A stretch of 64,000 nt of DNA, taken from positions 20,173 through 84,172 of the forward strand of contig JASDRC010000030.1 in the NCBI GenBank assembly GCA_041442125.1, written 5' to 3'. This document shows positions 8,614-36,202 of this stretch, in pieces. The notes beneath the pieces are model-generated. The model made no database searches and had not been told where the DNA came from. It was given only the letters and a program-made list of their open reading frames with translations. This DNA comes from Polaromonas sp. Lineage in GTDB: Bacteria > Pseudomonadota > Gammaproteobacteria > Burkholderiales > Burkholderiaceae_C. A program made the translations under genes and the position numbers. Every line of letters starts with the position of its first letter. The stretch's first letter is position 1.

Positions 8614-9246
8614 TCACTTCATCGATCGAACAGCTGACTCTACCTGGCTGACGCGCTGCTCGGTCGGATGGCCACTGACGCGGGCGATGATCTGCCCTTC
8701 GGAATTCAAAATAATCACGTAGGCGCTCGTGCTTTCCTTCGGAATATTGAGCGCCGTTTCAAGGCGCGTTTCAGCGAGGATCCAAGTCTGGTCGTGGTAG
8801 CGAGCTGGAATCTTTTCCTTGGCGATCCCTATGGCGTCGGCCTCGCTCATGAAGAACGGCAGATCGATAGCCAGCACGTCGCGGATACGGATTGACTTTT
8901 GATCCAGGTTTTCGCGCAGCGCATTGGCCCACTTTCGCGTGTCTTCGGCAGCAGCTTTGCTGGGCGTGACGATCAGGATCGTCGGTTGGCCGATGAGCTT
9001 GGCATCGGTGACCTTCTCGCCGCTCAGCGTGGTTGCCTCGAACGAAGGAATTGGACTGTTCGGAGCCGCACCCGCCCACGGTGCGGCCAACAGGGTGCAA
9101 GCCGTCGAAGCGATGACCCACATGATGGAAGCTGCGGCAGAGATCGATCTCATGAAACGCATGGGTAGTGCGTGTCGACTATGGCGCCTACTGCTGATTC
9201 TTTTCCGCTGCCCTTGCATTAAATCGTTAAATTGTGCGGTCGTCAT
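8614..9246 (-). CDS. Hypothetical exported protein with redoxin-like fold (true start probably later)
   Basis: Signal-like segment IASTACTLLAAPWAGAA, then PSFEATTLSGEKVT..LIGQPTILIV and VIILNSEGQIIARVSG, a redoxin pattern. No CxxC. Confidence 0.6.
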   Translation of the reverse strand: MTTAQFNDLMQGQRKRISSRRHSRHALPMRFMRSISAAASIMWVIASTACTLLAAPWAGAAPNSPIPSFEATTLSGEKVTDAKLIGQPTILIVTPSKAAAEDTRKWANALRENLDQKSIRIRDVLAIDLPFFMSEADAIGIAKEKIPARYHDQTWILAETRLETALNIPKESTSAYVIILNSEGQIIARVSGHPTEQRVSQVESAVRSMK

Positions 9247-15944: not shown

Positions 15945-15962
15945 ATAAAGGGAGACCAACTC

Positions 15963-16988
15963 ATGCAAAGACGACATCTGATAGCCGGCGGCCTTGTCGC
16001 TGCCACCTTGCCTCAGTGGGCCTTGGCTCAAGCCCTCGAAAAACCTAAAGTCACGCTTGCTGTGGGTGGTAAAAACTTGCTGTATTACCTGCCTCTGACC
16101 ATTGCCGAGGAGTTGGGCTATTTCAAGCATGAAGGCTTGGACCTGACTATCGTCAATTTTGCAGGAGGCTCTAAAGCCCTTCAAGCTGTGGTGGGTGGCA
16201 GTGCAGATGTTGTTTCCGGTGCCTTTGAGCACACCATCAACATGCAGTTCAAGGGCCAAATGATGCGCGCATTTGTCCTGCAAGGCGCTGCACCGCAAAT
16301 TGTCTTGGGCATCAATCCCAAAACCATGCCCAATTTCAAGAGCGTGGCTGACCTCAAGGGCAAGAAAATGGGTGTGACGGCGCCTGGCAGTTCCACCAAC
16401 GTGATGGCTAATTTTGTACTGGCCAAAGCCGGGCTTATGCCCAGCGATGTCAGCTTCATCGGCGTGGGGACGGGAAGCGGCGCAGTTGCCGCCATGCGGA
16501 CAGGTCAGATCGATGCCTTGTGCAACCTTGACCCTGTGATCACTTTATTGCAACGCTCAGGTGACCTCAAAATAATTGCCGACACCCGCAAACCTTCAGA
16601 GGCAGAGAAAATATTTGGTGGTCCTATGCCGGCAGGTTGCCTTTATGCACCGCAAGCTTTTCTTGATAAAAACCCTGCCACGACCCAAGCCATCACGAAT
16701 GCCATAGTGCGTGCGCTCAAATGGATTCAAACGGCAGGCGCTTCTGACATCATCAAGGTTGTGCCAGAGGGCTATTTATTGGGTGACCGTGCCGTCTATA
16801 TTGAAGCATTCTTGGCCGCAAAAGAAGCGTTGTCAGCCGATGGAATAATCCCAGAAAAAGGGTCTCAAACTGCTTTCCGTGCACTGGCCAGCGTCGATAA
16901 AAAAATTGCGTCGGCCAAGTTGGACCTGAAGGCGGTTTACACCAACGAATTTGTCCAAAAGGCTAACAGCAAGTACCCAAAAGGTTGA
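15963..16988 (+). CDS. ABC transporter substrate-binding protein (NitT/TauT/SsuA-like)
   Basis: RR-type leader, YLPLTIAEELGYFK, NFAGGSKALQAVVGG, LKGKKMGVTAPGSST. Confidence 0.88.
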   Translation: MQRRHLIAGGLVAATLPQWALAQALEKPKVTLAVGGKNLLYYLPLTIAEELGYFKHEGLDLTIVNFAGGSKALQAVVGGSADVVSGAFEHTINMQFKGQMMRAFVLQGAAPQIVLGINPKTMPNFKSVADLKGKKMGVTAPGSSTNVMANFVLAKAGLMPSDVSFIGVGTGSGAVAAMRTGQIDALCNLDPVITLLQRSGDLKIIADTRKPSEAEKIFGGPMPAGCLYAPQAFLDKNPATTQAITNAIVRALKWIQTAGASDIIKVVPEGYLLGDRAVYIEAFLAAKEALSADGIIPEKGSQTAFRALASVDKKIASAKLDLKAVYTNEFVQKANSKYPKG

Positions 16989-17799: not shown

Positions 17800-18629
17800 C
17801 CATGTGGAATTTGATTAAACCGCGCAGCGCGAACCTGTGGGTATGGCAGTTGGGCATACTGGTCGGACTGTTTTTGTTTTGGCACGTGATGACCGCGCCA
17901 GGTCTGATACCGCCGATGATGTTCGACAACGATCGCCAAGCGGCTTTCTTTTTTGGTGAGCCACTCAAAATGGCGTCACGCATCTGGGTGTGGTTTGTGG
18001 TCGACGCAGACATCTATCAACACTTGGGTGTGACGCTGACAGAGACGCTGCTTGCCTTCGCCATTGGCTCGGGCTTGGGTTTGGTTGGTGGTCTGTGGCT
18101 GGCACTGGCGCCCATGGCTTCTGCCATTTTTGAGCCTTACATCAAAGCCATGAACGCCATGCCGCGCATCATTTTGGCCCCCATATTTTCAGTTTGGTTT
18201 GGACTGGGCATGGGCTCAAAAGTGGCGCTGGGTGTGACCCTGGTTTTCTTCATTGTTTTTTTCAATGTTTACCAAGGCGTCAAAGAAGTTAGCCCCGTGG
18301 TGCTGGCCAATGCCCGTATGCTAGGTGCCGATCAGCGTCAGTTGCTGCGCTTCGTCTACCTGCCCAGCGCGACCAGTTGGGTCTTCAGTTCCTTGCACAC
18401 CTCGGTAGGATTGGCCTTCGTGGGAGCGGTTGTGGGGGAGTATCTGGGTTCCAGCCAAGGCGTGGGTTACTTGATTCTGCAGGCCGAAGGCAGCTTTGAC
18501 ATCAACACCGTGATGGCGGGCATTGTGGTGCTGACCATCTTTGCGTTGCTGCTCGATAGCTTGGTTGGCGTGCTGGAAAAAAGGCTCATGAAGTGGCAGC
18601 CACGGTCAGGCGAGACGGAGAAACTGTAA
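17796..18629 (+). CDS. ABC transporter permease (TauC-like)
   Basis: NAMPRIILAP, EAA-like loop LANARMLGA, AFVGAVVGEYLGSSQGVG. Confidence 0.92.
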   Translation: MTMWNLIKPRSANLWVWQLGILVGLFLFWHVMTAPGLIPPMMFDNDRQAAFFFGEPLKMASRIWVWFVVDADIYQHLGVTLTETLLAFAIGSGLGLVGGLWLALAPMASAIFEPYIKAMNAMPRIILAPIFSVWFGLGMGSKVALGVTLVFFIVFFNVYQGVKEVSPVVLANARMLGADQRQLLRFVYLPSATSWVFSSLHTSVGLAFVGAVVGEYLGSSQGVGYLILQAEGSFDINTVMAGIVVLTIFALLLDSLVGVLEKRLMKWQPRSGETEKL

Positions 18630-18767
18630 ACGTTGTCTGCCTTTTTTATTTGTCTTTTGGTTGCGATGCGTTAGTTAGAGCAGCGCTCAACCTCTCGTTG
18701 TTGCAAATCAACGCTGGGGTCAGAAATGAGTCCACGATAGCAAGGCGCAGGGACTCTTCAGGCGGTA

Positions 18768-19025
18768 TCAGCCTTGATTCAATGCGTCTTCAAACTCAGC
18801 CAGTTCTTCAGCAATAGCCGCGTACTTCTTTGACTTGGCTTTGTTGTCAACCCATTGGAGGGTGGCTTCTTCTAAGTCTTCTTTGTAATGGGTCAGGGCC
18901 GCGTCTTTGATTTTGGCGGTGACTTTTTTGTCAGCGCTGGACCAGAGGTCAATCAGGTCTGACAGGCCGTTGTCGAAATCTTCAAAAGTCTCGAGATGGA
19001 CCCGCTGGGCGTTTTTGTCGTTCAT
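18768..19025 (-). CDS. Hypothetical 85-aa acidic protein
   Basis: ATG start with upstream AGAAAG. No recognisable family. Codons partly duplicated at 9736-9822. Confidence 0.6.
   Translation of the reverse strand: MNDKNAQRVHLETFEDFDNGLSDLIDLWSSADKKVTAKIKDAALTHYKEDLEEATLQWVDNKAKSKKYAAIAEELAEFEDALNQG
18840..18926. repeat. Copy B of the 87-bp dispersed direct repeat
   Basis: See 9736-9822. Lies inside the 85-aa ORF. Confidence 0.95.
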
Positions 19026-19064
19026 GTTTTCTTTCTGTGTGTTGGGGTTTATTCCAAAATCGCA

Positions 19065-19082
19065 CTTACATCCGTCCTTACA
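19065..19082 (-). repeat. Direct repeat TGTAAG x2, 12-bp period (putative integrase arm sites)
   Basis: CTTACA at 19065-19070 and 19077-19082 on the plus strand. Confidence 0.5.
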
Positions 19083-22427: not shown

Positions 22428-22484
22428 CTGAAGTTAATGCAGGTGGACAAAACAAGAGCGCGCTGGGCAACAACGACGCTGTCT

Positions 22485-22565
22485 GAAACTTCCCACGCCA
22501 GCATGATCTGGATCGGGTCCTAGGGTTTTTCTCAGACCAGCCTTTGAGCCAGACACCCCTGTTTC
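22485..22565 (-). ncRNA. TPP riboswitch upstream of thiO
   Basis: Minus strand GAAAC-AGGGGTG...CTGAGAA-AAACCC...GACCCGATCCAGATCATGCTGGCGTGGGAA-GTTTC. Conserved elements and P1 pairing GAAAC/GTTTC present. Confidence 0.93.
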
Positions 22566-22662
22566 ATCCGTAGTCAGAATTACATCACAAGTCGCTCGGC
22601 TGGCTCTTGGTGTGGCTCTTTATGGGGTTCTTTGTGGGTGCAATTTGCCCGATAATTTCTGT

Positions 22663-23535
22663 ATGAGCATTCACGCCTTCCCCACACCACACCACCGGTA
22701 TGCCCGGGTCTTGTCGATCGCCGGTTCTGACAGCGGCGGCGGTGCCGGCATTCAAGCCGACCTGAAAACCTTCAGCGCCTTGGGCTGCTACGGCATGACC
22801 GCCATCACCGCCTTGACGGCTCAAAACACGCTCGGCGTGAGCGGCATTCACGCCGTGCCGCCCGAGTTTTTGAAGGCGCAATTGCAGGCCGTGATGGAAG
22901 ACATCGGCGTTGACGCGGTGAAGATCGGCATGCTGCATTCGCCTGAAATCGTCAAAGTCGTGGCGTGGGCGATTCGCCATTACCAGCTGGAGAACGTGGT
23001 ACTCGACCCCGTCATGGTGGCCACCAGCGGCGACCGTTTGATTGAGCAAGAGACGGTTCAGTTGCTGCGGCAAGAACTGTTTCCGTTGGTCAGCGTGATC
23101 ACGCCGAATTTGGACGAGGCAGCTTGGCTGTTGGGCCGGCCGCTTGAACATGCTGACCAGCTGGACCAAGCCGCCAGCGATTTGCTGGCGATGGGCGCGC
23201 AGGCTGTCTTGCTCAAGGGCGGCCACCTGCGGGGGCAAGCGGTGGTCGATGTGTTGGCCGAAGCCGGTCAGCCTTGGCTGCACCTGCGCTCTGAACGGAT
23301 CGCCAGCAAAAACGTGCATGGCACGGGTTGCACTTTGTCGTCAGCCATTGCTTCGTACCTTGCGCTGGGGCTGCCGCTGCGACAAGCTGTGCAGCAGGCG
23401 CGGGTTTATATTTTGAGCGCTATCGCGGCCGGAGCGGCGGTCGAAACCGGCTCAGGCCATGGGCCCTTGAACCATGGTTTTGCGCCTGTGCCACTTCACT
23501 TCATCACCAAGCCGCCGTCGACCACCAGCACCTGA
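22663..23535 (+). CDS. thiD: HMP/HMP-P kinase
   Basis: VLSIAGSDSGGGAGIQADLKTF, VKIGML, VVLDPVMVATSG, ITPNLDEA, HGTGCTLSSAIA, GHGPLNH. Confidence 0.96.
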   Translation: MSIHAFPTPHHRYARVLSIAGSDSGGGAGIQADLKTFSALGCYGMTAITALTAQNTLGVSGIHAVPPEFLKAQLQAVMEDIGVDAVKIGMLHSPEIVKVVAWAIRHYQLENVVLDPVMVATSGDRLIEQETVQLLRQELFPLVSVITPNLDEAAWLLGRPLEHADQLDQAASDLLAMGAQAVLLKGGHLRGQAVVDVLAEAGQPWLHLRSERIASKNVHGTGCTLSSAIASYLALGLPLRQAVQQARVYILSAIAAGAAVETGSGHGPLNHGFAPVPLHFITKPPSTTST

Positions 23536-24278
23536 CCGGTCATGAAGCGGCTCCAGTCGGAGGCCAAGAACAAAACTGGGCCGGTGATGTCTGCTGGCGT
23601 GCCGATTCGGCCCAGCGGTGTTTGCGCCACGATGCTGTCTTGCACCGCTTCCCGCGTCAGCCGGCTTGATTCGGTGGGCATGACCAGACCTGGCGCAACA
23701 CAGTTGACGCGAATGCCCAGCGGCCCTAAATCAGTCGCCAAATGCCGGCTGAAGCCGACCAAGGCGGATTTGGCTGTGGCGTAGTCGTTGTAGGCGATGG
23801 TGGGGCGCTCCACCAAATCACTCGCCATGTTGATGATGCTGCCTTCGCCGCGTTGCCGCAAGTGCGGCAGCACGGCCTGGCAGACGTTGTAAGCGGCTTG
23901 CACCGAGCCGTCGAATTGCGTTTGAAAGGCATCCCATGGCAGTTCCCAAAAACGCTGCCGGTGCTCGGGGTCAAAGGCATACGGGCTGAATGCGTTGTTG
24001 ACCACCACATCAATGCGGCCGGTCTCCAGCAACGCCTGTGCCACCATCGCCGTCACCGCCTCTGGCAGACGCACATCGGCCTGCAAGGCCATGGCGTCGC
24101 CACCCAATGCTTGGCAAGCCAGTACCACCTCGTCAGCGGCGGCCGCATTTTGCAGGTAGTTGACCAAGACCATGGCGCCTTCGCCTGCAAAGGCTTTGGC
24201 AATGGCCGCGCCAATGCCGCGGCTGGCACCTGTCACCAAGACCACCTTGCCCCGAAAGGCTTGGCTGCTGGCGTTCAT
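23496..24278 (-). CDS. Short-chain dehydrogenase/reductase (FabG-like)
   Basis: TGASRGIG, VVNNA, catalytic Ser and YATAK, IRVNCVAPG, MTGQVLVVDGG. Confidence 0.93.
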   Translation of the reverse strand: MNASSQAFRGKVVLVTGASRGIGAAIAKAFAGEGAMVLVNYLQNAAAADEVVLACQALGGDAMALQADVRLPEAVTAMVAQALLETGRIDVVVNNAFSPYAFDPEHRQRFWELPWDAFQTQFDGSVQAAYNVCQAVLPHLRQRGEGSIINMASDLVERPTIAYNDYATAKSALVGFSRHLATDLGPLGIRVNCVAPGLVMPTESSRLTREAVQDSIVAQTPLGRIGTPADITGPVLFLASDWSRFMTGQVLVVDGGLVMK

Positions 24279-25297
24279 CGTTTGCCTGGCAGCAAGTCTT
24301 GACTCACCACGTCGGTGATTTTGATGTCGCGCTGAATCACGCCGAAGGCTTTGTAGGCTTGGGCGCCTGTTTGCAGCGACTGCATGTCAAACGAACCGAG
24401 TCCATTTTTTTGCGTGTTGACCGAGACACTGGACAGATTGCGCAGCTTGATGACCTCGAGATTGATCGCCGAATCTTTGCCGTCGATGGCGTATTTGACG
24501 GCCAGTTTGGCGGCTTCTTCAGGCGAGAGAATCATCCAGTTCGCGCTGTCACGGTAGGCCAGCAGAAAGCGCTTGAGCACTTCTTTTTTCGATTGGTAAG
24601 TCTCTTCACGAACGACAAAAAAGTCGCTGGAAATATTCAGGTGGTTTTTGACCTCCATCACATTGACCTCGCCCAAGCCGCGTTGTTTGCCGACCAGCAA
24701 ACCGGTGTCGGTGGCGGCCGTGGCGTCGACCTGGCCTTGCATCAGGGGTGCGAAGTTCAACAAACCAGTCACCACCACGGTGACGTCGGATTCGCTCAAG
24801 CCGGCTTGGTGCAAAAGCACTTGCAGGTTTTGCCGGGTGCCGCTGGACAGGCTGTAGACGCCAATGCGTTTGCCTTTCAGGTCGGCCGGCTTGCTGATAT
24901 TGGCTGATTTGAGTGACACGACGTTGAAAACGTTTTGCGGGTAAATGTCGTAGATGGCGCGCAGCTTTTCACCTTTGTCCAAAGCTGCAAAAAACGAACC
25001 TGGGTCGGTAAAGGCGATGTCGGCTTGCTTGCTCAGCAAGTTGCGCAATGCGTCACCGCCGCCCGCGCCCGGCACGTAGCCGAGTTCAATGCCGCGCGCT
25101 TTGAAAAAGCCCTTGTCTTCTTCGACCAGCAAGTTGGTGATTTCGGTGATGGGTTTACTCCAGCCAGCGACCACCATTTTGTCGAGCTTGGCGGGTGTTT
25201 GCGCCAGACTGGCGCTGGGCGCGCTGAAGCCCATCACGCTGACCGCGAGCGCCAGCAAAGAGGCTTGCGTTTTGAATTTTTGAGTCCAGATTTTCAT
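24275..25297 (-). CDS. ABC substrate-binding protein, NMT1/THI5-like (ThiY-like)
   Basis: Signal peptide, KGFFKARGIEL, ISKPADLKGKRIG, LMQGQVDA. No cysteines. Confidence 0.85.
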   Translation of the reverse strand: MKIWTQKFKTQASLLALAVSVMGFSAPSASLAQTPAKLDKMVVAGWSKPITEITNLLVEEDKGFFKARGIELGYVPGAGGGDALRNLLSKQADIAFTDPGSFFAALDKGEKLRAIYDIYPQNVFNVVSLKSANISKPADLKGKRIGVYSLSSGTRQNLQVLLHQAGLSESDVTVVVTGLLNFAPLMQGQVDATAATDTGLLVGKQRGLGEVNVMEVKNHLNISSDFFVVREETYQSKKEVLKRFLLAYRDSANWMILSPEEAAKLAVKYAIDGKDSAINLEVIKLRNLSSVSVNTQKNGLGSFDMQSLQTGAQAYKAFGVIQRDIKITDVVSQDLLPGKR

Positions 25298-26064
25298 TTT
25301 TTAACTTTCTTTTGACTATCAACAGGAGGCTGAAGCAAACGTCGCTCCAGCCATTCGGCAAATTTGTAAAACACCAGGCCCAACACGGTGATCAGCACCA
25401 GCACGGCAAACATCAGCGGCGTGTCCATCGAGCCTTGCGCGGCAATGATCAGCGCGCCCAAGCCTTTGCTGGCACCAATGAATTCTGCCACCACCGCGCC
25501 GACCCAGGCCAACACCACGGCGACACGCACGCCGGCCATGATGTGGGGCAAACCAGCGCGAACCTTCAACCGCCACAGCGTTTGCCAGCGGCTGGCCCGC
25601 AACATGCGGAACAACTCCAACCGCTGCGGGTCAACCTGTTGCAAGCTGGTGGCGGTGTTCTCTAACAAGGGGAAAAAACAAATCAAGGCGGTCATGACCA
25701 CGATCGGCAAGGTACCAAAGCCAAACCAGACGATGAACAGCGGTGCCAGCGCCAGCTTGGGCACGACTTGGCTGATGACCACGTAAGGCATCAAAATGCC
25801 GCGCCAGCGAGCCGACTCGCCCAACACCATGCCGCCGACAAAACCAACACCGCCGCCGAGCAGCAGCCCCAGCAGCACAGCACGGGTGGAACTGATGATA
25901 TGCGGCCACAAGTAGCCGCTGGCCAAGCCCTGCCAAAGCGATTGCGCGATGACACTGGGGGCCGGCAACACCAAGGGTGATGGCTGGGCCAAGCGCACCC
26001 AAACCTCCCACAGCACGATGAAGCCGATGCCCATGGCCACTGATATCCAGTGCTCGCGGCGCAT
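25294..26064 (-). CDS. ABC permease (ThiX/SsuC-like)
   Basis: LVLPAPS, QVVPKLALAPLFIVWFGFG, AWVGAVVAEFIGASKGLG. ATG at 26064 overlaps the upstream TGA. Confidence 0.92.
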   Translation of the reverse strand: MRREHWISVAMGIGFIVLWEVWVRLAQPSPLVLPAPSVIAQSLWQGLASGYLWPHIISSTRAVLLGLLLGGGVGFVGGMVLGESARWRGILMPYVVISQVVPKLALAPLFIVWFGFGTLPIVVMTALICFFPLLENTATSLQQVDPQRLELFRMLRASRWQTLWRLKVRAGLPHIMAGVRVAVVLAWVGAVVAEFIGASKGLGALIIAAQGSMDTPLMFAVLVLITVLGLVFYKFAEWLERRLLQPPVDSQKKVKK

Positions 26065-26822
26065 CACAAGCTGCCGTCCATGGCTTGACGCAATTCGGCG
26101 CAACGGGCGTTGAAGTCGGCTGTGTAGCGAACAGCAGGTCGGCGCGGGTGTGGCAAGTTGACGGCCAGCTGATGACAAATCTCACCGGCCTGCATGACGC
26201 TGACAGTGTCTGCCAGATAGACCGCTTCGGCGATGTCGTGCGTGATGAACAAGACTGATGTGCGCAGGCTTTGGCAGAGCGCCAGCAAATCTTGTTGCAA
26301 TTCACTGCGCGTGATGGCGTCCAGTGAGGCAAAAGGCTCGTCCATGAACAGCATCGGCGGCGCGTTGACCAAGGCGCGCGCGATGGCGACACGGCTTTGT
26401 TGCCCGCCAGAAAGTTGCTGTGAATGGCGCGCATGCAAGTCTTTCAACCCGAGTTGATCAAGCAAGGCCATGGCTTTCTCGCGCTGAGCGGTTTGAACTT
26501 TGCCGTGCAGAGCGATCGGCAACAAGACGTTGTCCAACACATTGAGCCAGGCCAACAAGGTCGGCGTTTGAAAGACAAAACCCATGTCGGGCTTGGGGCC
26601 GGTCACCGGCGCTCCTTGCAAGGCAATGCAGCCACCTTGAGGCAGCAGCAAACCGGCGGCGAGCTTGAGCAAGGTGGTCTTGCCGCAACCACTGCGGCCA
26701 ATCAGGCAATGGAACTCGCCCGGGGCGATGTGCAGACTGACGTCTTTCACCACATCACGCACCCCATCGCTTTGGCCTGGGTAGGCGTAGCGAACGGCGG
26801 CCAGTTTTAAAAAGCGGCTCAT
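26064..26822 (-). CDS. ABC ATP-binding protein (ThiZ/SsuB-like)
   Basis: GRSGCGKTT, LSGGQQSR, FMDEPFASLD, FITHDIAEA. Confidence 0.93.
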   Translation of the reverse strand: MSRFLKLAAVRYAYPGQSDGVRDVVKDVSLHIAPGEFHCLIGRSGCGKTTLLKLAAGLLLPQGGCIALQGAPVTGPKPDMGFVFQTPTLLAWLNVLDNVLLPIALHGKVQTAQREKAMALLDQLGLKDLHARHSQQLSGGQQSRVAIARALVNAPPMLFMDEPFASLDAITRSELQQDLLALCQSLRTSVLFITHDIAEAVYLADTVSVMQAGEICHQLAVNLPHPRRPAVRYTADFNARCAELRQAMDGSL

Positions 26823-26823
26823 G

Positions 26824-28326
26824 TCAGAGTTCGTAGCGGGTGAGGCCTTCAGCCGCCAGTTCCGCCGACTGGTCGATGTCGACCATGCGCACCAAATCGA
26901 GCAGGCTGAAGCGGCCGTCGTGATGCCAGCCGGCCTCGGGTGAAGTCATGGCACCCAAAGCGCAAATGCGCGTGACGCCGGCTTGGCCCAAGGCCTCGCC
27001 CAGCGCCAGCAGTTCTTCAGGCGCAGCGGCCAAACCGACCGTTTGCAAATTGGCCCGCTGCGGCGCAATCAACGCCATCACGTCGTGCAATGAGTCCACC
27101 GCGACCACCAACACGCAGCGGTTCAAGGGGCTGGGCTGCAGCGTGTGCGGCGCCTCCGCGTAGACGACAGTGAAGGCTTGCGTCGCGTCGCCCAGCACGC
27201 GGTGGCCGGCTTGCCGGAGGCTCTCAAATTCGTGCTGTTCCCGCCAGCCAGCGATGCTGGCCGCTTCTTCAAGCGTCAGCGTTCGACGCGCAAATTTGGA
27301 CGCCAGTGCTGCCAGCTCACTGGCCAAGCGTTGCGCAAATTCGAGCGGTTGAACTGGCCCACCGCGCTGCACAAAAAACACCTGCGGCGAATAACAACCT
27401 TGCTGGTCCCAGCGCACCACATCGAGCGCTGCTGCTCGCGCTGTGGCTTGGCCGCGCAGGACTGACAGCGCCGCGTTCGAAACCATGCCAAAACTGAGCT
27501 TGTGGCCGTGCGGCAAGAAACGCGTGGTCACCGGCATCCGGTCTTGCATGGCGCGCAGCGCGGTGTTGCCGCCATAGGCCAGCACCACGTCGGCCTCGGC
27601 GAAGACGCAAGACTCGACTCCGTCGTCGCCGCCTTGCCACCAGACCACGGCAAAGCAGTCGGCCCAGCGTGGCTCGACCTCGGCCAGTAGCCGTGCAAAT
27701 AGGCTGGCAAAAACAGGTTCAGCACTGGCCATTTTGCCGATCGCGCCGGCCTTGACCAGCAAGCCAGAGACAAAACTCCACAAGGGCAGGGCCGGCACAT
27801 TGCCAGACCAAACATGGACCAGCAAATCGGGGCCGATGGCCTTGCTCCAGCCGCCTTTGAGACGGGGCTGGAACTCGTCAAGCAGCTTGGGGTTGGCCAA
27901 GTCTTCGGCGACAAAGCGCTGCAGTTGCAGCCCGCGAAAAGTTTGCAGGTAGCTGTGCAAGCTGAGCCGCACCATGGCCGCATCAAAGCCGGTAGCGCGC
28001 GGCAACAGGCGTTCGAGCGCTTGACGGTAGGGGTCTTGCGTATCCAACAAGCGCGCGATGGCGCTGTCGATGCTGCGGACGATGTCCGAGACCAGTAAGG
28101 ACTTCAAATGCACTCGGCTGGCGTGTCGAACACGGCTGGCGAGGGTCTTGAATTGCTCGGGGCTGAGCACTGGCACGTCCACGCTCAAGGAATCGTTTGG
28201 CGTGCCCAGTTGCAGCCGCTGCCAACGCACTTCGTCGTCCCGCAAGCCGGGCAAATAACCCGCTTTGAATACATCGGCATTGAAGACTTCAGCGGTGACG
28301 GCTTCATTGCTGCCGTGGCGGGTCAT
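26824..28326 (-). CDS. LuxC-like acyl-protein/acyl-CoA reductase
   Basis: HVWSGNVP, ADVVLAYGG, HGHKLSFG, WDQQGCYSPQ (candidate catalytic Cys), GVTRICALG, WHHDG. Confidence 0.88.
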   Translation of the reverse strand: MTRHGSNEAVTAEVFNADVFKAGYLPGLRDDEVRWQRLQLGTPNDSLSVDVPVLSPEQFKTLASRVRHASRVHLKSLLVSDIVRSIDSAIARLLDTQDPYRQALERLLPRATGFDAAMVRLSLHSYLQTFRGLQLQRFVAEDLANPKLLDEFQPRLKGGWSKAIGPDLLVHVWSGNVPALPLWSFVSGLLVKAGAIGKMASAEPVFASLFARLLAEVEPRWADCFAVVWWQGGDDGVESCVFAEADVVLAYGGNTALRAMQDRMPVTTRFLPHGHKLSFGMVSNAALSVLRGQATARAAALDVVRWDQQGCYSPQVFFVQRGGPVQPLEFAQRLASELAALASKFARRTLTLEEAASIAGWREQHEFESLRQAGHRVLGDATQAFTVVYAEAPHTLQPSPLNRCVLVVAVDSLHDVMALIAPQRANLQTVGLAAAPEELLALGEALGQAGVTRICALGAMTSPEAGWHHDGRFSLLDLVRMVDIDQSAELAAEGLTRYEL

Positions 28327-29399
28327 CCGCGTGCCGCTTTCAGAAAGTCTTCAACCGCCAGCGAGCAACCCTTGGCTTGGGCGCCCTGCGCCCGGCCGAG
28401 CAAGACAAAACCGTCGTCGGTGGCCACGCCGACATCCTCGGTCAAGATGGTCACGACGGAGTTGACATTGGCCAGGTCGGTGTGCGCCAAAATTCCGCGT
28501 TCGCCTTGGGCCAGCTCTAGACCCGTCATGGGGTCCAGCACGCGCGAGCGCAGCCAATGCGGCCCGCGTTTGACGGATGGAACACTGGCATTGCCGGCGT
28601 CATAAAACTGCGTGCTCAGCTCGGTCATGCCGTACATGTTGATGCACTGGCGGCGGTCAATGCCGAAGGTGGCCGACAACTGAGCATAAAAATCGTCCAT
28701 CGGAATGTCGCGCGACTGGCCTTTGAAGCCGCCGGTGTCGAGGATTCGGCTGCCCTTGGGCAGGGCAAACGACAGCCCGCGTGCTTGCAGTTCATCCAGC
28801 AGATGGACAAAGCTGTAACTCGCGCCCAACAAGGCAAAGGCTTGATCCGACCGCTCGGCCCTGTGCAAGGCCTCGCACAGCGCGTCGGTGCGCAGACCGT
28901 TCTGGTCTAGGCAGTAGGCGCTGTCAGCGGTGCCAAAATGCTGCATCGCCAAGCCCAGGTAGTGGGCGAGTGAGGAGCTCTGCATCAGCGTTTCGCTTGG
29001 AAATAAAATACCCATCGGCAGGCGTGCGTCGCCTTGCATGAAGTGTTGGCTGAAGTGGCGCAGCATGGACGCGTCATAGACCGCCAAGTTTGGATGGTGG
29101 TGACGGCCTTTGACCTCGCCGCGGGTCGTGCCGCTGGTCATGAAGACGCGTTCGCAGTCTTCCGCTGGGACGCAACTCAGCGTGAACTCCTTGAAGGCGT
29201 CGATCGGTACGGCCGGGATGTCGCGCCAACTTTTGACCAGCCTGGGGGTTTTACCGCGCAACTGGCAAAAACGCTGGTAAGGCAGGTTGAGCGCGAACTG
29301 CCTTGCAAAAATGCGCAGTGCCAGCGCATTGAACTCTTCATCGCTGACGGCCGGTCGGGCAATGAAAGTCAGCAACTCGCGGGTGATGTCTTCAGACAC
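28323..29399 (-). CDS. LuxE-like acyl-protein synthetase / acid-AMP ligase
   Basis: [55 protein letters not shown] (candidate acyl-acceptor Cys). GTG start at 29399 chosen to avoid a long overlap with fnr. Confidence 0.88.
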
Positions 29400-30432
29400 C
29401 CAACACCTTGTGCAGTTGGGTGCTGGTGGTGGTGTATTGCAGCTGAATGACCTTGTCCGGAAAGATGATCGGCGCGGCGCCAAATGCGGCCATCACGCAT
29501 TCATGAAAACCACAGACGATCAGTTTTTTCTTGCCGGCATAGGTGTTGATGTCGCCAACCGCAAAAATACCGGGCTCACTGGTCGAAAAAGTCACGGTGT
29601 CGACCGTGAGCTGCTTGCGCTCGATCGCCAGACCCCAGTCGGCAATCGGCCCCAGCTTGGGCGACAGACCCAAAAACACCAGCAGCTTGTCAACTGGCAG
29701 CGCGTGCGTGACGCCCGCGGGGTCTGTGACGTTGGCAGCAGTCAGTCGGCCTTCTTTTTCTTCGTAGCTGGTGACTTGCCCAGCCATGAACTGCATGGCT
29801 TTGGACGCGCACAAAGCTTTTATTTCAGCGATCTTGGTGGGATCTGCTTGAAAGCTGTCGCGGCGATGCACCAAAATTACGCTTTTGGCTTGCATCGGTC
29901 CTGCTTTGGCGAAGCCGATGGCGGTGTCTATGGCTGCATCGCCACCGCCGACGATCACCAAGTCTTGGCCCGCGAAGTCCGCCGGTTGGATGACGCGGTA
30001 AAAAAGTTGCGTGTCGTCAAACTTGTCCAGGCCTTCCAGGCGCAGCAGGCGCGGCTGGAACGCACCAACCCCTGCAGCGATGAAAATCGTCTTGGTTAAA
30101 AAGGCCGTGCCTTTGTTGGTTGTCAGTAAAAAGCGGCCATCGGCCTGCTTGTCAAGCGTGCTGACTTCTTGCCCAAAATGAAAAGTCGCGCCAAAAGGCT
30201 CGATTTGACGCAGCAATGACGCGGTGAGTTCGCGGCCAGTGGTGGCTGGCAGGGCCGGAATATCGTAAATCGGCTTGTCGGGATACAGCTCGATGCATTG
30301 ACCACCGGCGTAAGCCAGCGAGTCAATGACGTGGGTCTTGAGCTCCAGCAGACCCAGCTGAAACACCTGATACAAGCCAACAGGCCCGGCGCCGATGATG
30401 ACGGCGTCGGTTTCAATCACTGCGGGGTTCAC
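29392..30432 (-). CDS. Ferredoxin-NADP+ reductase (TrxR-type)
   Basis: [58 protein letters not shown]. Confidence 0.9.
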
Positions 30433-30451: not shown

Positions 30452-30781
30452 TCAGCGAACGAGTTCGCTGAGCTTGCCCGTTTTGTCTTTCCAGTCGTCA
30501 GCGTCTGGCAAAGCTGGTTTGCGCTTGGTGATGCTCTTCCAACCGGTCTGGGTCGACAACTCTAAGTTGATCTTGATGAAGTCGAGCTGGTCTGCGGGCA
30601 AGTCTTCTTCCGCATAAATCGCGTTGACCGGGCACTCAGGAATGCAGACGGCGCAGTCGATGCACTCGTCCGGCTCGATCACCAACATGTTGGGGCCTTC
30701 GCGAAAGCAGTCGACAGGGCACACATCCACACAGTCGGTGTACTTGCAGCGGATACAGGATTCAGAAACGACGTGTGTCAT
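30452..30781 (-). CDS. fdxA: 7Fe-type ferredoxin
   Basis: [35 protein letters not shown]. Confidence 0.95.
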
Positions 30782-30866
30782 GCTTTTTTGGCTCGGTCGG
30801 TAAAACCATAGATTTTAAGATCTTTCTAAGGCGGTGCTGATGGGAGGGATTAAAGACGGCTTTAAT

Positions 30867-32204
30867 CTATTGGGCGGACAGAATCAAAGCGGCTCCGGAG
30901 GTCTTGTGCGAGGCGGTATCGACCAGCACCAGAGAGCCCAGAATGCGCGATTCGGCAAAGGGAATTGCCGCAATCGGCTCTTGCAACGTCAGCTCGACCA
31001 CGCCAATGGCGTTGGCGTCAAGTTGGGTCGCCGTTTGCTCTTCGAGCGTGTTGATATTCACTTGATGAACGATGCGCTTGACCTTGGCCTTGACCCAGCG
31101 GTGACCTTGCAAGGCCCAATACAGGCGGCCAGGCAGCAAAGGTTCGTCGTCCATCCAGGCGACGGTGGCGGTCAGCTCACGTTTGCCGGGTGAGTCGCCA
31201 AAGCCTTTTGTGGCCAACAGGACATCGCCGCGTGAGACGTCGAGTTCGCGGTCCAAGATGATGCCGGCGCTGTGGCCTGCACGCACCGACTTTGGCGAAC
31301 GTGCATGGTCGAGCACCTCGGCCACGACCGCGCTCTTGCCGCTGGGCAAGACGCTGACGCTCTGGCCGACCTGCACCGCGCCGCTGGCAATCCGGCCCCA
31401 AAAAATACGCCGGCCTTGTGAGGTGTCAGCACTTGACGAAAACTTCTCAACCCATTGCACCGGAAAGCTGAAGGGCTGGGCGGTGTCGGCGGGGGTGGCC
31501 GAGAGTTGCTCCAAAATCGCCAGCAAGGCCGGGCCATGGTAGTTGCACCAGCCGGGGTTGGCGTCGACCACGTTGAAGCCAATCAGCGCCGACACCGGCA
31601 CGATGGCCTGGGCGCTGATGCCGGCATGCTCTGTGAATTGCCGCAGCGCGGCGCTGATGTGTTCAAACGCCAGCGCTGGGTCTTCGACGGCGTCGAGCTT
31701 GTTGACGGCAAAGACGATGGACGGCACGCGCAACAATTTCACCAGCAGCGAATGGCGGCGGGTTTGCGACAACAAGTTGGGCAAGGCGGATTGCCAGTCA
31801 AGCTTGGTGGCGTCGACCAGCACCACGGCGGCGTCGGCGCTGGACGCTGCCGTGACCATGTTGCGGGTGTATTGCTCGTGGCCGGGTGCGTCGGCAATGA
31901 TAAATTTGCGGGCCACCGTGTTGAAGTAGCGGTAGGCCACGTCAATCGTGATGCCTTGCTCGCGCTCGGCTTGCAGGCCGTCGGTCAGCAGGGCCAAGTC
32001 GACCTTGCCGCTGCGTTGCACGCTGGCCAGCTGGTCTTGCAGCACGGCGCGGGAGTCGACCAGCAGGCGACCGATCAAGGTGCTCTTGCCGTCGTCGACG
32101 CTGCCGCAGGTGACAAAGCGCAGGGCGGCGCGGGTGTCTTGCTCGGCGTTGGCCGAGGCGGTGTCGGCCACGTCTGGATTGCTGGTTTGAAGAATCGTGC
32201 TCAT
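30867..32204 (-). CDS. cysN: Sulfate adenylyltransferase subunit 1
   Basis: TCGSVDDGKSTLIGRLL, EREQGITIDVAYRYF, DAPGHEQYTRNM, NKLD. Confidence 0.95.
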   Translation of the reverse strand: MSTILQTSNPDVADTASANAEQDTRAALRFVTCGSVDDGKSTLIGRLLVDSRAVLQDQLASVQRSGKVDLALLTDGLQAEREQGITIDVAYRYFNTVARKFIIADAPGHEQYTRNMVTAASSADAAVVLVDATKLDWQSALPNLLSQTRRHSLLVKLLRVPSIVFAVNKLDAVEDPALAFEHISAALRQFTEHAGISAQAIVPVSALIGFNVVDANPGWCNYHGPALLAILEQLSATPADTAQPFSFPVQWVEKFSSSADTSQGRRIFWGRIASGAVQVGQSVSVLPSGKSAVVAEVLDHARSPKSVRAGHSAGIILDRELDVSRGDVLLATKGFGDSPGKRELTATVAWMDDEPLLPGRLYWALQGHRWVKAKVKRIVHQVNINTLEEQTATQLDANAIGVVELTLQEPIAAIPFAESRILGSLVLVDTASHKTSGAALILSAQ

Positions 32205-33160
32205 CAGAAATAACCCTCTTTTTTGCGCTTCTCCATCGAGGCGTCGGAAGTCTTGTCGTCCATGCGGGTGGAGCCGCGTTCACTGACGTCGGCGGTGAGT
32301 GTTTCTAGCACCACTTCGGCGGGATTCATGGCCGGGCTTTCGACCGGGCAGGTGCAGGTGATGTCGCCCAAGGTGCGAAAGCGGACGGTTTTGTCGACCG
32401 CGGTTTCACCGGCTTTCAAGGGCGTGAGCTCGGTCACTGGCACCAGCAGACCTTTGCGTTCCACCACGCTTCGTTGGTGCGCGTAATACAGCGACGGCAG
32501 TTCGATCTGCTCACGCTCGATGTATTGCCAGACGTCGAGTTCCGTCCAGTTGGAAATTGGGAAGACGCGAAAGTGCTCACCCGGCTGCAAGCGTGTGTTG
32601 AAGAGGTTCCACAGCTCAGGCCGTTGGGCTTTGGGCTGCCATTGGCCGAAGGCGTCACGGTGCGAAAAAATCCGCTCTTTGGCCCGGGCTTTCTCTTCGT
32701 CACGGCGGGCGCCGCCAATCAAAGCGTCAAAGCGAAACTCTTCAATCGCCTCCAGCAAGGTGACCGATTGGTGCACGTTGCGCGACTCGCCCGGGTGCGC
32801 CAGCCGAACGGTGCCGCGCTGCATCGAGTCTTCGACGTTGCGGACAATCAAATTGGCGTCCAGCTGCTGTGCTCGGTAGTCCCTGAATGCTGTCACTTCC
32901 GGGAAGTTGTGGCCGGTGTCGATCATCAGCAACGGGTATGGAATATGACCGCCACGGCTGCTGTCGACAAAGGCTTTTTCAGCGCATTTGAGCAGCACCA
33001 GCGAGTCTTTGCCGCCGGAAAACAGCAGGGTTGGGCGCTCGAAAGCGGCGGCGACTTCACGCAAGATGAAGATCGCCTCTTCTTCTAACGCGTCCAGGTG
33101 CGCATTGCTAAGCTGGGTCTTCGATTGACTCAACAGGTGGGCTTCGGCTACAGCGTTCAA
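32204..33160 (-). CDS. cysD: Sulfate adenylyltransferase subunit 2
   Basis: LLFSGGKDS, IDTGHNFPE, GARRDEEKARAKERIFS, FRTLGDITCT. Confidence 0.96.
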   Translation of the reverse strand: MNAVAEAHLLSQSKTQLSNAHLDALEEEAIFILREVAAAFERPTLLFSGGKDSLVLLKCAEKAFVDSSRGGHIPYPLLMIDTGHNFPEVTAFRDYRAQQLDANLIVRNVEDSMQRGTVRLAHPGESRNVHQSVTLLEAIEEFRFDALIGGARRDEEKARAKERIFSHRDAFGQWQPKAQRPELWNLFNTRLQPGEHFRVFPISNWTELDVWQYIEREQIELPSLYYAHQRSVVERKGLLVPVTELTPLKAGETAVDKTVRFRTLGDITCTCPVESPAMNPAEVVLETLTADVSERGSTRMDDKTSDASMEKRKKEGYF

Positions 33161-33966
33161 GCGGAGACCTCTTTGATGGGAATGATGGATGAAATCGTGG
33201 AAATCGTGGAAATAGCGGCGGACTGGCCGTCGGTGCTGTCAGAGACATGCAGGCCGCACTCTTTGGCGCTTTCTTGCTCCCACCACCAGCGGCCGGAGCG
33301 AATGTCTTCGCCCAGCGTGACGGCGCGGGTGCAGGGGGCGCAACCGATGCTCGGGAAAAATTCGTCGTGCAGCGGGTTGTAGAGAATATTGTTGATGGCG
33401 ATGAAGTGCCAAACGTCACCGGCGGTCCAGCGCGCCAGCGGGTTGACTTTGGCCCGTTGGACAGTTTGGCCAGGCTCACCGACCCATTCGTGCTCGATCA
33501 ACTCGACTTCGGCTCTGGCGTTGGACTGCTCGCGGCGCAGGCCGGTCAGCCAGCCTTTTTTGCCGGCCAGCGCGCGACCCAATGGTTCCATCTTGCGGAT
33601 GCCACAGCAGGCTTTGCGCAGTTCGACGCTCTGGTACATGGCTTTGTCACCGTGCGTGCTAACGAATTGAGCAGCGGCTTCGGCCACCGGACGGTAGGCG
33701 TCCACCGGGCGGGCGTAGCGCGCCTCAATGCGGCGAATCATGTCCACCGTCTGCGGGTGCAGCATGCCGGTCTCCAATACGAAAATACGGCAGTCGATGT
33801 GGTGCTCAGCCAGCAAGTGGGTGATGACCATGTCTTCAGCGCCCAAGCTGGAGGCTTGCGTCAAGGGCGAAAATTCTTGCGCCGCACGCTGCAAGAGCGC
33901 GGTGGTTTCGGCCAGCTTGCTGTCGAAATCAGCCGAGGCTTTGGCGTAAAGCGAGACGGCGCTCAT
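33157..33966 (-). CDS. cysH: APS reductase (Fe-S type CysH)
   Basis: CCGIRKMEPL, SIGCAPCT, RSGRWWWE, ECGLH. Confidence 0.94.
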   Translation of the reverse strand: MSAVSLYAKASADFDSKLAETTALLQRAAQEFSPLTQASSLGAEDMVITHLLAEHHIDCRIFVLETGMLHPQTVDMIRRIEARYARPVDAYRPVAEAAAQFVSTHGDKAMYQSVELRKACCGIRKMEPLGRALAGKKGWLTGLRREQSNARAEVELIEHEWVGEPGQTVQRAKVNPLARWTAGDVWHFIAINNILYNPLHDEFFPSIGCAPCTRAVTLGEDIRSGRWWWEQESAKECGLHVSDSTDGQSAAISTISTISSIIPIKEVSA

Positions 33967-34400
33967 GCGCTGGTGCTTTCTGCTTGAGTGTCGGCGACAG
34001 AGAAGTGCGGTTTGATCTGCACCGCATCGCCTTGGTAGCGGCCGACGCCGTAACCCGGGTAACTGGCCAACACACGCTGCGCCACCTCAAGGGGTTGGTC
34101 GGCCCGCAGCACGGCCACGTCAAAGCCACTGCGTTCCATTTGGGCCAGCTGGTCGACCAGCACGTCGCCGGTGGCGCGAATCTCGCCGGTGAATTCACGC
34201 CGGCGGCGCAGCAAGAAAGCCTGGCTGTAGGCGCGGCCATCAGTGAACTTCGGAAAATGCAGGTCAATGCGTTTGACGCCGTCCAGCGGCAAGTCCATTG
34301 GGTCGGCGTCATTGGCGAAAACCACGGTGCCCGGCAGTTCAGCGGCGTCGTCTTGCGTATTGTCTGGGGTGGTGAGTAGTTTCATGGGGTGTTCCTTCAA
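33963..34400 (-). CDS. DUF934 family protein
   Basis: IDLHFPKFTDGRAYSQAFLLR, EIRATGDVLVDQL, GFD. Sits between cysI and cysH. Confidence 0.9.
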   Translation of the reverse strand: MKEHPMKLLTTPDNTQDDAAELPGTVVFANDADPMDLPLDGVKRIDLHFPKFTDGRAYSQAFLLRRRREFTGEIRATGDVLVDQLAQMERSGFDVAVLRADQPLEVAQRVLASYPGYGVGRYQGDAVQIKPHFSVADTQAESTSA

Positions 34401-36202
34401 GCCTGTTCGACCACAGCAAAGCGCGCGTTCTTGGCCGCGGCTTTGTACGGCTCGATGCCGACGCGGCGCAGCGTGGCAATGAAGGTTTCGCCAGACACGC
34501 GCTGTAGGCGATAGGTCTCCAAAACCGCTTCAATCACTTCTGGGACTTCAGACGCCGTGAACGACGGGCCGACGACTTTGCCAGCCAAAGGAGCGCCGCT
34601 CAAAGTTGAGCCGTCAGAGCCGCCCAGCGACACCTGGTACCACTCCAGGCCGTCTTTGTCGACGCCCAAAATGCCGATGTGGCCGCTGTGGTGATGGCCG
34701 CAGGAGTTGATGCAACCGCTGATGTGCAGGTCGATCTCGCCGAGGTCGTGCAACTCGTCCATGTCTTGGTAGCGCTCGGTGATGGCCTCGGCAATCGGGA
34801 TCGAGCGGGCATTCGCCAGCGAGCAAAAGTCGCCGCCGGGGCAGGCGATCATGTCGGTCAGCAGCCGGATGTTCGAGCGCGCAAAGCCGGCTTTGCGGGC
34901 GGCACGCCAAAGCGCTGGCAACTGGTCGAAAGCGACCCAAGGCAGCAGCAAGTTTTGGTCGTGCGTGACGCGCAATTCGCCGGCGCTGAAGGCCTCGGCC
35001 AATTCGGCGGCTTGGTCGAGCTGGTCGGCGGTGGCGTCGCCGGGCGCTTGGCCCAAGCGCTTGAACGACAGGGTGACGGCGCGCAAAGCAGGGTTTTGGT
35101 GTGCGCTGACGTTTTGCTTGAGCCAGCGGCTGTATTCGACGTCGTCTTCAGCTGCGGTATGCACGATATGGGCAACTTGAGCGACGCTGTCTTGGCCATC
35201 GGTGTTCAGCGCCGGTGGCACGAAGCAAGCCGTGACGCGGTCAAGTTCAGCCTGCGTGATGGTGTGCGGGCCACCATCGTGTTCCATGATTTGCAGGTAT
35301 TCGGCTTCGACGTCGTCGATGTAGCGCTGGCCTTCGGCCTTGACCAAAATCTTGATGCGGGCCTTGTAAATATTGTCGCGGCGGCCGTAGCGGTTGTAGA
35401 CGCGGACGATGGCTTCGATGAAGTTCATCACCTGATGCCACGGCAGAAACTCACGGATCACGCTGCCGATGATGGGCGTGCGGCCCATGCCACCGCCGAC
35501 CAACACTTTGAAGCCGAGCTCGCCTTCAGCGTTGCGGATCAGGTGCAGACCGACGTCATGCCAGGCGGTGGCGGCGCGGTCTTCGTGGGCGCCACTGATG
35601 GCGATCTTGAACTTGCGCGGCAAAAAGGCGAACTCTGGGTGCAGTGTGCTCCACTGCCGCAGAATCTCGCCAAACGGCCGCGGATCGGCAATTTCGTCTG
35701 CCGCAATACCGGCGCGTTCGTCGCTGGTGATGTTGCGGATGCAATTGCCGCTGGTCTGGATGCCGTGCATATTGACGCTGGCCAGCAGGTCCATCACGTC
35801 GGCAGACTTGTCGAGCGGAATCCAGTTGTACTGGATGTTCTGGCGCGTCGTGAAGTGGGCGTAGCCAGCGGTCAGTTTGGAGCTGATGGCCAAGCCGCCG
35901 GTCAACACCGGGCCAAGCAAGTCTTGCTTGGCTTGAGCGTCTTTGAACAGCTCGGCGTTCGGCTGGTCGTAGTCGCGGGCAATTGTGGCCAACACGCGGA
36001 CTTGCGCGCTGGAGAGTTCGCCATAAGGCACGGCCACGCGCAACATCGGCGCGTAACGCTGCACGTACCAGCCGTTTTGCAAACGCAGTGGTTTGAATTC
36101 GTCTTCGGACAATGTGCCGGCTTGCCAGCGTGTCAGCTGGTCGCGGAACTGGTCGGCCCGCGCTTGGACGAACTGGCGGTCAAATTCGGTGTATTGGTAC
36201 AT
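34397..36202 (-). CDS. cysI: Sulfite reductase hemoprotein subunit
   Basis: TTRQNIQ, TSGNCIRN, LPRKFKIA, ACPGGDFC, SGCINSCGHH. Confidence 0.93.
   Translation of the reverse strand: MYQYTEFDRQFVQARADQFRDQLTRWQAGTLSEDEFKPLRLQNGWYVQRYAPMLRVAVPYGELSSAQVRVLATIARDYDQPNAELFKDAQAKQDLLGPVLTGGLAISSKLTAGYAHFTTRQNIQYNWIPLDKSADVMDLLASVNMHGIQTSGNCIRNITSDERAGIAADEIADPRPFGEILRQWSTLHPEFAFLPRKFKIAISGAHEDRAATAWHDVGLHLIRNAEGELGFKVLVGGGMGRTPIIGSVIREFLPWHQVMNFIEAIVRVYNRYGRRDNIYKARIKILVKAEGQRYIDDVEAEYLQIMEHDGGPHTITQAELDRVTACFVPPALNTDGQDSVAQVAHIVHTAAEDDVEYSRWLKQNVSAHQNPALRAVTLSFKRLGQAPGDATADQLDQAAELAEAFSAGELRVTHDQNLLLPWVAFDQLPALWRAARKAGFARSNIRLLTDMIACPGGDFCSLANARSIPIAEAITERYQDMDELHDLGEIDLHISGCINSCGHHHSGHIGILGVDKDGLEWYQVSLGGSDGSTLSGAPLAGKVVGPSFTASEVPEVIEAVLETYRLQRVSGETFIATLRRVGIEPYKAAAKNARFAVVEQA

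Follow-up and report, generated by a model that had tools for sequence, protein, structure and literature searches.

The subject of this analysis is a block of six genes on the minus strand of a 64,000-nucleotide stretch of a Polaromonas genome (GenBank assembly GCA_041442125.1, contig JASDRC010000030.1, positions 20,173 to 84,172; hereafter the window). The block, at 23496-29399 of the window, codes in order for a LuxE-like acyl-protein synthetase, a LuxC-like acyl-thioester reductase, the ATPase and the permease of an ATP-binding cassette (ABC) transporter, a periplasmic binding protein and a short-chain dehydrogenase/reductase (SDR). The genome is of the Comamonadaceae type, 2.58 Mb in size and 99.9% complete. 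A preliminary description of the window, made from the sequence alone, had presented these as six co-oriented and nearly overlapping genes that might salvage an oxidized product of thiamine (vitamin B1). The gene structure is borne out by Pfam matches and by the junctions as read directly from the sequence: ATGA overlaps join the LuxE/LuxC, permease/binding-protein and binding-protein/SDR genes, a 1-nt gap separates the LuxC and ATPase genes, and a GTGA overlap joins the ATPase and permease genes. The permease is likely to start at either the GTG at 26067 or the ATG at 26064, overlapping the ATPase stop. The motifs noted earlier are also all present, namely TSGTT and KGCS in the LuxE-like protein, DQQGCYS in the LuxC-like protein and YxxxK, in the form YATAK, in the SDR. 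As laid out below, we consider it very likely that the block is a self-contained cassette of the thiamine regulon devoted to reductive salvage.

Distribution and riboswitch control of the cassette

A scan of one genome per species recovered 245 LuxC-like relatives, and the best 80 loci were retained for comparison of the cassette. The same six genes occur in the same order in almost every sufficiently long locus among these best 80 of 245. The hosts include Limnohabitans, Curvibacter, Hylemonella, Variovorax, Rhodospirillales, Azospirillum, gammaproteobacterial metagenome-assembled genomes (MAGs) and two Bacilli (Ectobacillus and Domibacillus); three loci (L074, L075 and L083) lack the ABC transporter and have luxE-luxC-SDR only. 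Among 251 genomes from 166 genera, sampled evenly over the family, 20 hold the cassette (~8%), distributed over 15 genera.

Scanning with Rfam detected a thiamine pyrophosphate (TPP) riboswitch directly 5' of luxE in all 16 loci so scanned. In 14 of these the element exceeds the gathering score (54.3), and in the remaining two, both from Bacilli, the identically placed element falls below it, with 47.7 and 52.9 bits. We built our own covariance model from these TPP elements and ran it over all 80 loci, of which 70 were assessable, i.e., extended 300 nt or more upstream of luxE or had a riboswitch match in that region. A TPP riboswitch was found before luxE in 68 of these 70, at a median distance of 98.5 nt. 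The loci bearing it span betaproteobacteria, alphaproteobacteria, gammaproteobacteria and Bacilli and have unrelated flanking genes; the co-occurrence of luxE-luxC-ABC-SDR clusters with TPP riboswitches, which the preliminary description had put forward as a check, is thus seen across four bacterial classes. One locus (L017) shows tandem TPP-riboswitch-like matches 5' of luxE, at 8428-8531 and 8736-8839 (55 and 81 bits with our model); in the related L016, the position of the first of these adjoins a tRNA.

Eight whole genomes were also scanned for TPP riboswitches. In five that lack thiC, namely the named isolates Limnohabitans sp. Rim47, Jir72 and JirII-31, Burkholderiaceae MaE-M4 and the Polaromonas-like MAG of L036, the riboswitch of the cassette is the only one detected, and no thiamine-regulated importer other than the cassette was seen; these genomes retain thiD, thiO, thiG and thiE. 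In a sixth thiC-less genome, that of the isolate MOLA814 (L042), a second TPP riboswitch precedes a thiB-like binding protein. The protein behind it (L094, 304-1616) is ThiB/TbpA-like (SBP_bac_11), and MOLA814 probably also imports thiamine. A seventh, the MAG of L007, has its second TPP riboswitch before thiO. The genome of the window has two TPP riboswitches, one ~500 nt upstream of thiC and one before thiO.

The neighbourhood of the cassette is less informative. Loci of the Limnohabitans/Polaromonas-like clade were the only ones in which cys genes were seen upstream and thiD/thiO downstream, and five annotated loci outside that clade have flanking genes that are not thiamine-related. Thus, although thiD adjoins the cassette in many loci and its adjacency in the window, pointed out earlier, is real, it is convergent and confined to this clade. 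We accordingly set adjacency to thiD and the thi operon aside as weak support, because it is inherited inside one clade.

The junction upstream of luxE in the window

In the window itself, Rfam detects no TPP element at the junction between luxE and the gene upstream of it, which codes for a thioredoxin-reductase-like ferredoxin-NADP reductase (hereafter FNR-like). The boundary of the block at 29399, as given earlier, is not a clean one: the GTG start of luxE at this position overlaps the TGA stop (29394-29392) of the FNR-like gene. Alignment with the close relatives L007, L010 and L014, whose LuxC proteins are 85-87% identical, shows that these carry ~300 nt extra at the junction. Missing from the window are ~7 codons at the end of the FNR-like gene, the spacer that carries the TPP riboswitch, and ~10 codons at the beginning of luxE. 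Contigs of four metagenome runs from four studies (freshwater, ice, seawater and ice) cross the junction without gaps and show 0 to 7 further differences in each kilobase; because the same junction recurs in four runs of four studies, the absence of the riboswitch cannot be put down to misassembly. The loss is a recent, lineage-specific deletion of ~300 nt that fused luxE to the FNR-like gene.

In comparisons with relatives, dN/dS ranges from 0.08 to 0.15 for the five cassette genes so examined, i.e., luxE (0.08), luxC and the genes of the ATPase, the binding protein and the SDR, which indicates that the cassette is intact and under strong purifying selection in the lineage of the window. Since the deletion removed the riboswitch, the cassette should be expressed independently of TPP; presumably it is now read through from the FNR-like gene, with luxE translationally coupled to it. 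In this particular genome the cassette is therefore no longer under a riboswitch.

The FNR-like gene itself is not part of the ancestral cassette, because in the relatives the riboswitch stands between it and luxE. Farther upstream (30452-36202) lies a co-oriented sulfur-assimilation cluster of cysI, a DUF934 gene, cysH, cysD, cysN and a DUF3470 ferredoxin gene, followed by the FNR-like gene; since the deletion, the cassette and this cys cluster may share a transcript. At the other end, the block had been described as ending on thiD and the thi operon. Instead, thiD is on the plus strand and convergent with the SDR gene, their 3' ends overlapping by 40 nt (23496-23535), and the thi operon has its own TPP riboswitch (Table 1). 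By its orientation, thiD is thus outside the operon and not co-transcribed with it. The antisense 3' overlap of the SDR gene and thiD is kept in relatives (~33 nt in L007 and others), and convergent transcription could couple the expression of the two genes. In the Azospirillum locus L081, a CRISPR array (CRISPR-DR16, 18224-19072) lies ~3.5 kb downstream of the cassette and is unrelated to the present finding.

Table 1. Features of the six-gene block and its surroundings (window coordinates).
Feature	Position	Strand	Supporting match
LuxE-like acyl-protein synthetase, 358 aa	28323-29399	-	PF04443, 73.6 bits (cut-off 24.9)
LuxC-like acyl-thioester reductase, 500 aa	26824-28326	-	PF05893, 304.5 bits (cut-off 21)
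ABC ATPase, TauB/SsuB/ThiZ type	26064-26822	-	PF00005, 112 bits
ABC permease, SsuC/TauC/ThiX type	25294-26067	-	PF00528, 119.9 bits
NMT1/THI5-family periplasmic binding protein with signal peptide	24275-25297	-	PF09084, 165 bits
OarX-type SDR, 260 aa	23496-24278	-	PF13561, 208.9 bits; TGASRGIG, YATAK
thiD (kinase for hydroxymethylpyrimidine and its phosphate, HMP/HMP-P)	22612-23535	+	PF08543, 327.7 bits; TIGR00097, 328.7 bits (above cut-off)
TPP riboswitch of the thiO-thiS-thiG-thiE operon, not of the cassette	22473-22570	-	RF00059, 58.8 bits (above gathering score)
Thioredoxin-reductase-like ferredoxin-NADP reductase (FNR-like)	29392-30432	-	PF07992, 87.9 bits
Deletion junction, FNR-like gene/luxE	29392-29400	-	Alignment with L007, L010, L014

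The enzymes and the importer

Enzymes of the LuxE/LuxC family convert an acid through a thioester to an aldehyde, and SDRs convert an aldehyde to an alcohol. To our knowledge, LuxC and LuxE relatives have so far been characterized mainly in the context of bioluminescence. In the window, the KGCSL at the C-terminus of the LuxE-like protein aligns with the KGCSL of chain E of 7XC6, the LuxC-LuxE complex of P. phosphoreum, and Cys311 of the LuxC-like protein, in DQQGCYS, aligns with the Cys of DQQACFS in chain A of the same structure and is unchanged across 15 homologues. In phmmer searches against 7XC6, the LuxC-like and LuxE-like proteins give E-values of 4e-17 and 2e-14, respectively. Both are far below the equivalog models of the lux operon, with the LuxE-like protein scoring 69.7 bits against NF052244 (cut-off 550) and the LuxC-like protein 100.8 bits against NF052251 (cut-off 750). 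The luciferase genes luxA and luxB are absent from the window, as first described, and do not stand beside luxC/luxE; the sole luciferase-like gene found genome-wide is on contig C23 (luxD was not searched for).

The pair thus shares with the LuxC-LuxE fatty acid reductase (7XC6, PMC9157457) its two-protein architecture, both catalytic Cys residues and, by expectation from these, ATP/NADPH-dependent acid-to-aldehyde chemistry. It differs in that the sequences are distant, luxA/luxB are lacking, and the enzymes are coupled to an importer and an aldehyde reductase, in operons that, unlike those of luminous bacteria, are thiamine-controlled. This coupling and control make myristate a very unlikely substrate of the cassette. 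The earlier proposal of a passage from acid via aldehyde to alcohol is consistent with the conserved catalytic residues.

The transporter has the make-up of a ThiXYZ system: an NMT1-fold binding protein that is secreted (its sequence has a recognizable signal peptide), together with a permease like SsuC and an ATPase like TauB. By name, the best NCBIfam matches of the ATPase are taurine, nitrate and sulfonate ATPases, all below cut-off. The binding protein is the most conserved protein of the cassette, with 60% identity between this betaproteobacterium and the Bacilli. Its profile, when searched against the PDB, matched 3QSL, 4NMY, THI5 and ThiY, and no SsuA, TauA or NrtA structure at E <= 0.001. 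A Foldseek search with its AlphaFold model (pLDDT 79) returned the thiamin-bound C. difficile protein 4NMY first (E 6.4e-21), followed by 3IX1, i.e., ThiY with formylaminopyrimidine (FAMP; 8.1e-21). SsuA was matched at E 3e-18, ~400-fold weaker than the top two, which is a modest margin. By both the profile search and Foldseek, the protein is thus closer to ThiY than to the sulfonate, taurine and nitrate binding proteins. The importer resembles ThiXYZ (3IX1) and 4NMY also in its membership of the TPP regulon and departs from them in its low identity (18-21%) and in its setting, for here its genes stand between those of the reductive enzymes, not beside tenA or ylmB.

In three Limnohabitans loci, a CytX-like permease of the NCS1 family is inserted between the riboswitch and luxE (L020, 7595-8896; L023, 7568-8872; L030, 7632-8903), and in L022 such a permease (15413-16639) lies between two thiD-like matches. 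Its best model is TIGR02358, a putative HMP transporter, with a score of 239 bits (cut-off 310). The evidence from the transporters also points towards HMP.

The SDR brings in an old orphan of the thiamine regulon. OarX, a FabG-like reductase, was placed in this regulon by Rodionov et al. in 2002, and its function is still orphan (PMC11223231). Oliveira-Filho, Rodionov and Hanson proposed in 2024 that OarX reduces the carboxyls of 4-amino-2-methylpyrimidine-5-carboxylate (PCA), 4-methylthiazole-5-acetate (MTA) or thiamin acetic acid, and found that C. glutamicum, which has oarX-fmnO, could use none of five oxidation products (PMC11223231). In their account, a link to an acyl-CoA synthetase is merely weak, LuxC/LuxE go unmentioned, and oarX clusters with thiOSGF, tenI and thiM in several genomes (PMC11223231). 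The SDR of the window scores 281.9 bits with NF006393, just below the cut-off of 292, and the next SDR paralogue of the genome reaches only 133 bits, which sets the former apart from the housekeeping FabG as a distinct FabG-like SDR. The SDR of L075 matches the same model. Further, the operons containing this SDR are under TPP-riboswitch control in the 68 of 70 orthologous loci noted above, if not in the window, where the element has been deleted.

In L074 (2066-3262) and L075 (7479-8582), a gene for a luciferase-like flavin monooxygenase stands divergently to riboswitch-luxE-luxC-SDR, and an EamA transporter gene lies downstream. The best model for this monooxygenase is SfnG, followed by RutA, and it probably corresponds to fmnO, which in the OarX paper is invariably a neighbour of oarX (PMC11223231); the occasional pairing with FmnO is thus seen here as well. 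By its NF006393 score, the TPP control of the orthologous operons and this neighbour in L074/L075, the SDR appears to belong with OarX. With the OarX/FmnO system (PMC11223231) the present SDR has in common its FabG-like type, the TPP-riboswitch control of its orthologous operons (lost in the window) and a hypothesized role in reducing oxidized thiamine fragments. What sets it apart is that it is the last gene of a six-gene cassette adding activation, first reduction and import, whereas the published tests used an organism without a reported acid-activating pair (PMC11223231). Because no such LuxC/LuxE pair is reported in C. glutamicum, the negative result with PCA there would not contradict a LuxE/LuxC route. 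The idea of carboxyl reduction in the preliminary description is not wholly new, having already been put forward for OarX (PMC11223231). Our searches for LuxC/LuxE together with thiamine returned nothing relevant within the searchable literature, where the combination of LuxC/LuxE chemistry, a ThiY-type importer and the orphan OarX is not described.

Candidate substrates and the proposed place of the cassette in thiamine salvage

The complement of thiamine genes in the hosts bears on the product. Of 51 cassette genomes, 48 lack ThiM, the kinase for hydroxyethylthiazole (HET), among them the 99.9%-complete genome of the window, and 49 lack thiamine pyrophosphokinase (TPK); the two Bacilli have both, and an enterobacterial MAG has ThiM as well. 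ThiG is present in 48 of 50. Since ThiM and TPK are mostly absent, ThiD is left as the only generally present one of the three salvage kinases that we tested, and HMP would most likely be the product. Further, the thiC-less hosts keep thiD, thiE and thiOSG and thus need a source of the pyrimidine.

From these data we infer a pathway, including what it starts from, its individual steps and which way it runs, as follows. The ThiXYZ-like importer, with its ThiY-like binding protein, would take up a carboxylated breakdown product of thiamine, most likely PCA. The LuxE-like enzyme would adenylate this acid and hold the acyl group as a thioester on its C-terminal Cys, from which the LuxC-like enzyme would accept it on Cys311 and reduce it with NAD(P)H to the aldehyde. 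The OarX-type SDR would then convert the aldehyde to the alcohol HMP, which ThiD would phosphorylate for ThiE. Like the known pyrimidine salvage (FAMP to aminomethylpyrimidine, AmMP, to HMP by YlmB/TenA, then ThiD), this route would regenerate HMP for ThiD after import of the ThiY type; unlike that route, which is hydrolytic and acts on aminomethyl derivatives, it would be reductive, dependent on ATP and NAD(P)H, and act on a carboxylate. The conversion of the pyrimidine acid to HMP had been favoured from the outset, and the absence of ThiM and TPK, the structures matched by the binding protein and the CytX-like permease make it the better fit among the three candidate acids. However, the argument from a missing thiC, with which it was introduced, does not stand: thiC is absent from the window only and is found on contig C23 of the same genome (618 bits). 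Taken as a whole, the explanation with PCA as the starting point and HMP as the end is our best single hypothesis of the substrate, one that we hold to be evenly poised between right and wrong.

Several observations weigh against this explanation. The window's own cassette has no riboswitch, and the covariance model finds none anywhere in L025 and L027, where the full cassette is present; these are a second, independent case of a riboswitch-less cassette. (Both loci are from low-GC Burkholderiales MAGs and have an AT-rich spacer upstream of luxE at ~8600-8930.) The binding protein is just 18-21% identical to ThiY (18%) and 4NMY, the Foldseek margin over SsuA is ~2.5 orders of E-value, and 4NMY binds whole thiamin, so that the ligand may be thiamin-sized. 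From gene clustering, the OarX paper favours a thiazole or thiamin as the substrate of OarX (PMC11223231). The window's genome, with its thiC, is a predicted thiamine prototroph. Nor is the cassette enriched in genomes without thiC, a link that had been suggested as a check: in the even family sample, thiC is present in 15 of 20 holders versus 126 of 231 non-holders (Fisher p = 0.10, the trend being opposite to that expected), against a thiC-less background of 44% in the family. Full-length thiC is found in 19 genomes of the 50 closest loci, a low count that reflects one clade, and we therefore rejected the phylogenetic profile against thiC loss as evidence. Lastly, the alphaproteobacterial MAGs of L074 and L075 show no ThiC, ThiG, ThiM or TPK, such that no simple scheme fits them, though these MAGs may be incomplete. 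In the Enterobacterales MAG of L083 (G050), thiC is in four adjacent frame-shifted pieces (contig C3, 9057-10395), which represent either a pseudogene or assembly errors.

Other substrates have to be set against PCA. The same chemistry might act on whole oxidized thiamine, with thiamine acetic acid being imported and reduced via the aldehyde to thiamine. This compound is a documented catabolite of bacteria and mammals, the top structural match of the binding protein is the thiamin-bound 4NMY, and the OarX paper leans to thiamin or thiazole derivatives (PMC11223231). But TPK is missing from nearly all cassette genomes (49 of 51), the thiD, thiE and thiOSG retained by the thiC-less hosts would be pointless were whole thiamine supplied, and in three loci the operon includes the CytX-like putative HMP permease, all of which make this reading quite unlikely. 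A step further down in plausibility is the reduction of MTA to HET for ThiM. The published clustering of oarX with thiOSGF, tenI and thiM (PMC11223231) and the proximity of the cassette to thiO-thiS-thiG-thiE in the Limnohabitans-like clade speak for it, but it is highly improbable given that 48 of 51 cassette genomes, the window's included, have no ThiM, that ThiG in 48 of 50 implies that the hosts make their own thiazole, and that the transporter components are of pyrimidine-associated kinds.

The cassette might also serve thiamine metabolism with another or further-modified carboxylate, or it might detoxify an aldehyde or an analogue of thiamine. In C. glutamicum, none of the five obvious oxidation products could be used, leading the authors of that work to suggest modified derivatives (PMC11223231); moreover, the cassette is frequent in thiamine prototrophs, and riboswitch-less variants exist. 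Yet TPP-repressed expression suits acquisition better than detoxification, for which a dedicated toxin importer would be odd, and PCA is preferable in needing no unknown compound; we regard this alternative as unlikely. Finally, a role apart from thiamine could be sought in an SsuABC-like sulfonate or fatty-acid reducing system tied to the adjacent cys cluster. The luxE of the window is indeed fused to the cysI-cysH-cysD-cysN-fdx-FNR cluster with no riboswitch, and the best NCBIfam names of the transporter are those of taurine and sulfonate transporters. However, the fusion results from a recent deletion in this lineage, the cys adjacency is seen only within the Limnohabitans/Polaromonas-like clade, orthologous loci have the TPP riboswitch in 68 of 70 cases, and the sequence profiles fail to reach the SsuA or TauA structures. 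On the riboswitch data and the profile searches we reject such a sulfur or sulfonate role, for which hardly any likelihood is left.

OarX might be a dedicated 4-amino-2-methylpyrimidine-5-carbaldehyde reductase yielding HMP and the shared last step of at least two undescribed routes, one through LuxE/LuxC and one through FmnO, a possibility that we hold to be less likely than not. The LuxE/LuxC route would start from the pyrimidine carboxylate, and FmnO, an SfnG/SsuD-like flavin monooxygenase, would release that aldehyde from some other derivative, such as the pyrimidine methanesulfonate that forms on cleavage of thiamine by sulfite. If this were true, the orphan oarX would receive a function after more than 20 years, and the environmental B1 cycle would gain a branch dependent on ATP and NADPH, present in ~8% of the genomes of the family sample.

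Numerous aquatic bacteria are unable to synthesize vitamin B1 or its pyrimidine moiety and subsist on trace amounts of vitamers, and which breakdown products can be recycled is a main open point of the B1 cycle. If our interpretation is true, the cassette adds a reductive route of salvage, and LuxC/LuxE relatives gain a role in cofactor salvage. Likewise, the long-orphan OarX would receive a concrete and testable substrate, and the failure of the 2024 tests in C. glutamicum, where LuxC/LuxE are not reported, would be explained (PMC11223231). The riboswitch-less allele of the ice, freshwater and seawater lineage to which the window belongs would be a natural deregulated variant of the system. 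In the five thiC-less freshwater genomes, three of them from named Limnohabitans isolates, the cassette may be the main pyrimidine route, because it is the only operon there behind a detected TPP riboswitch.

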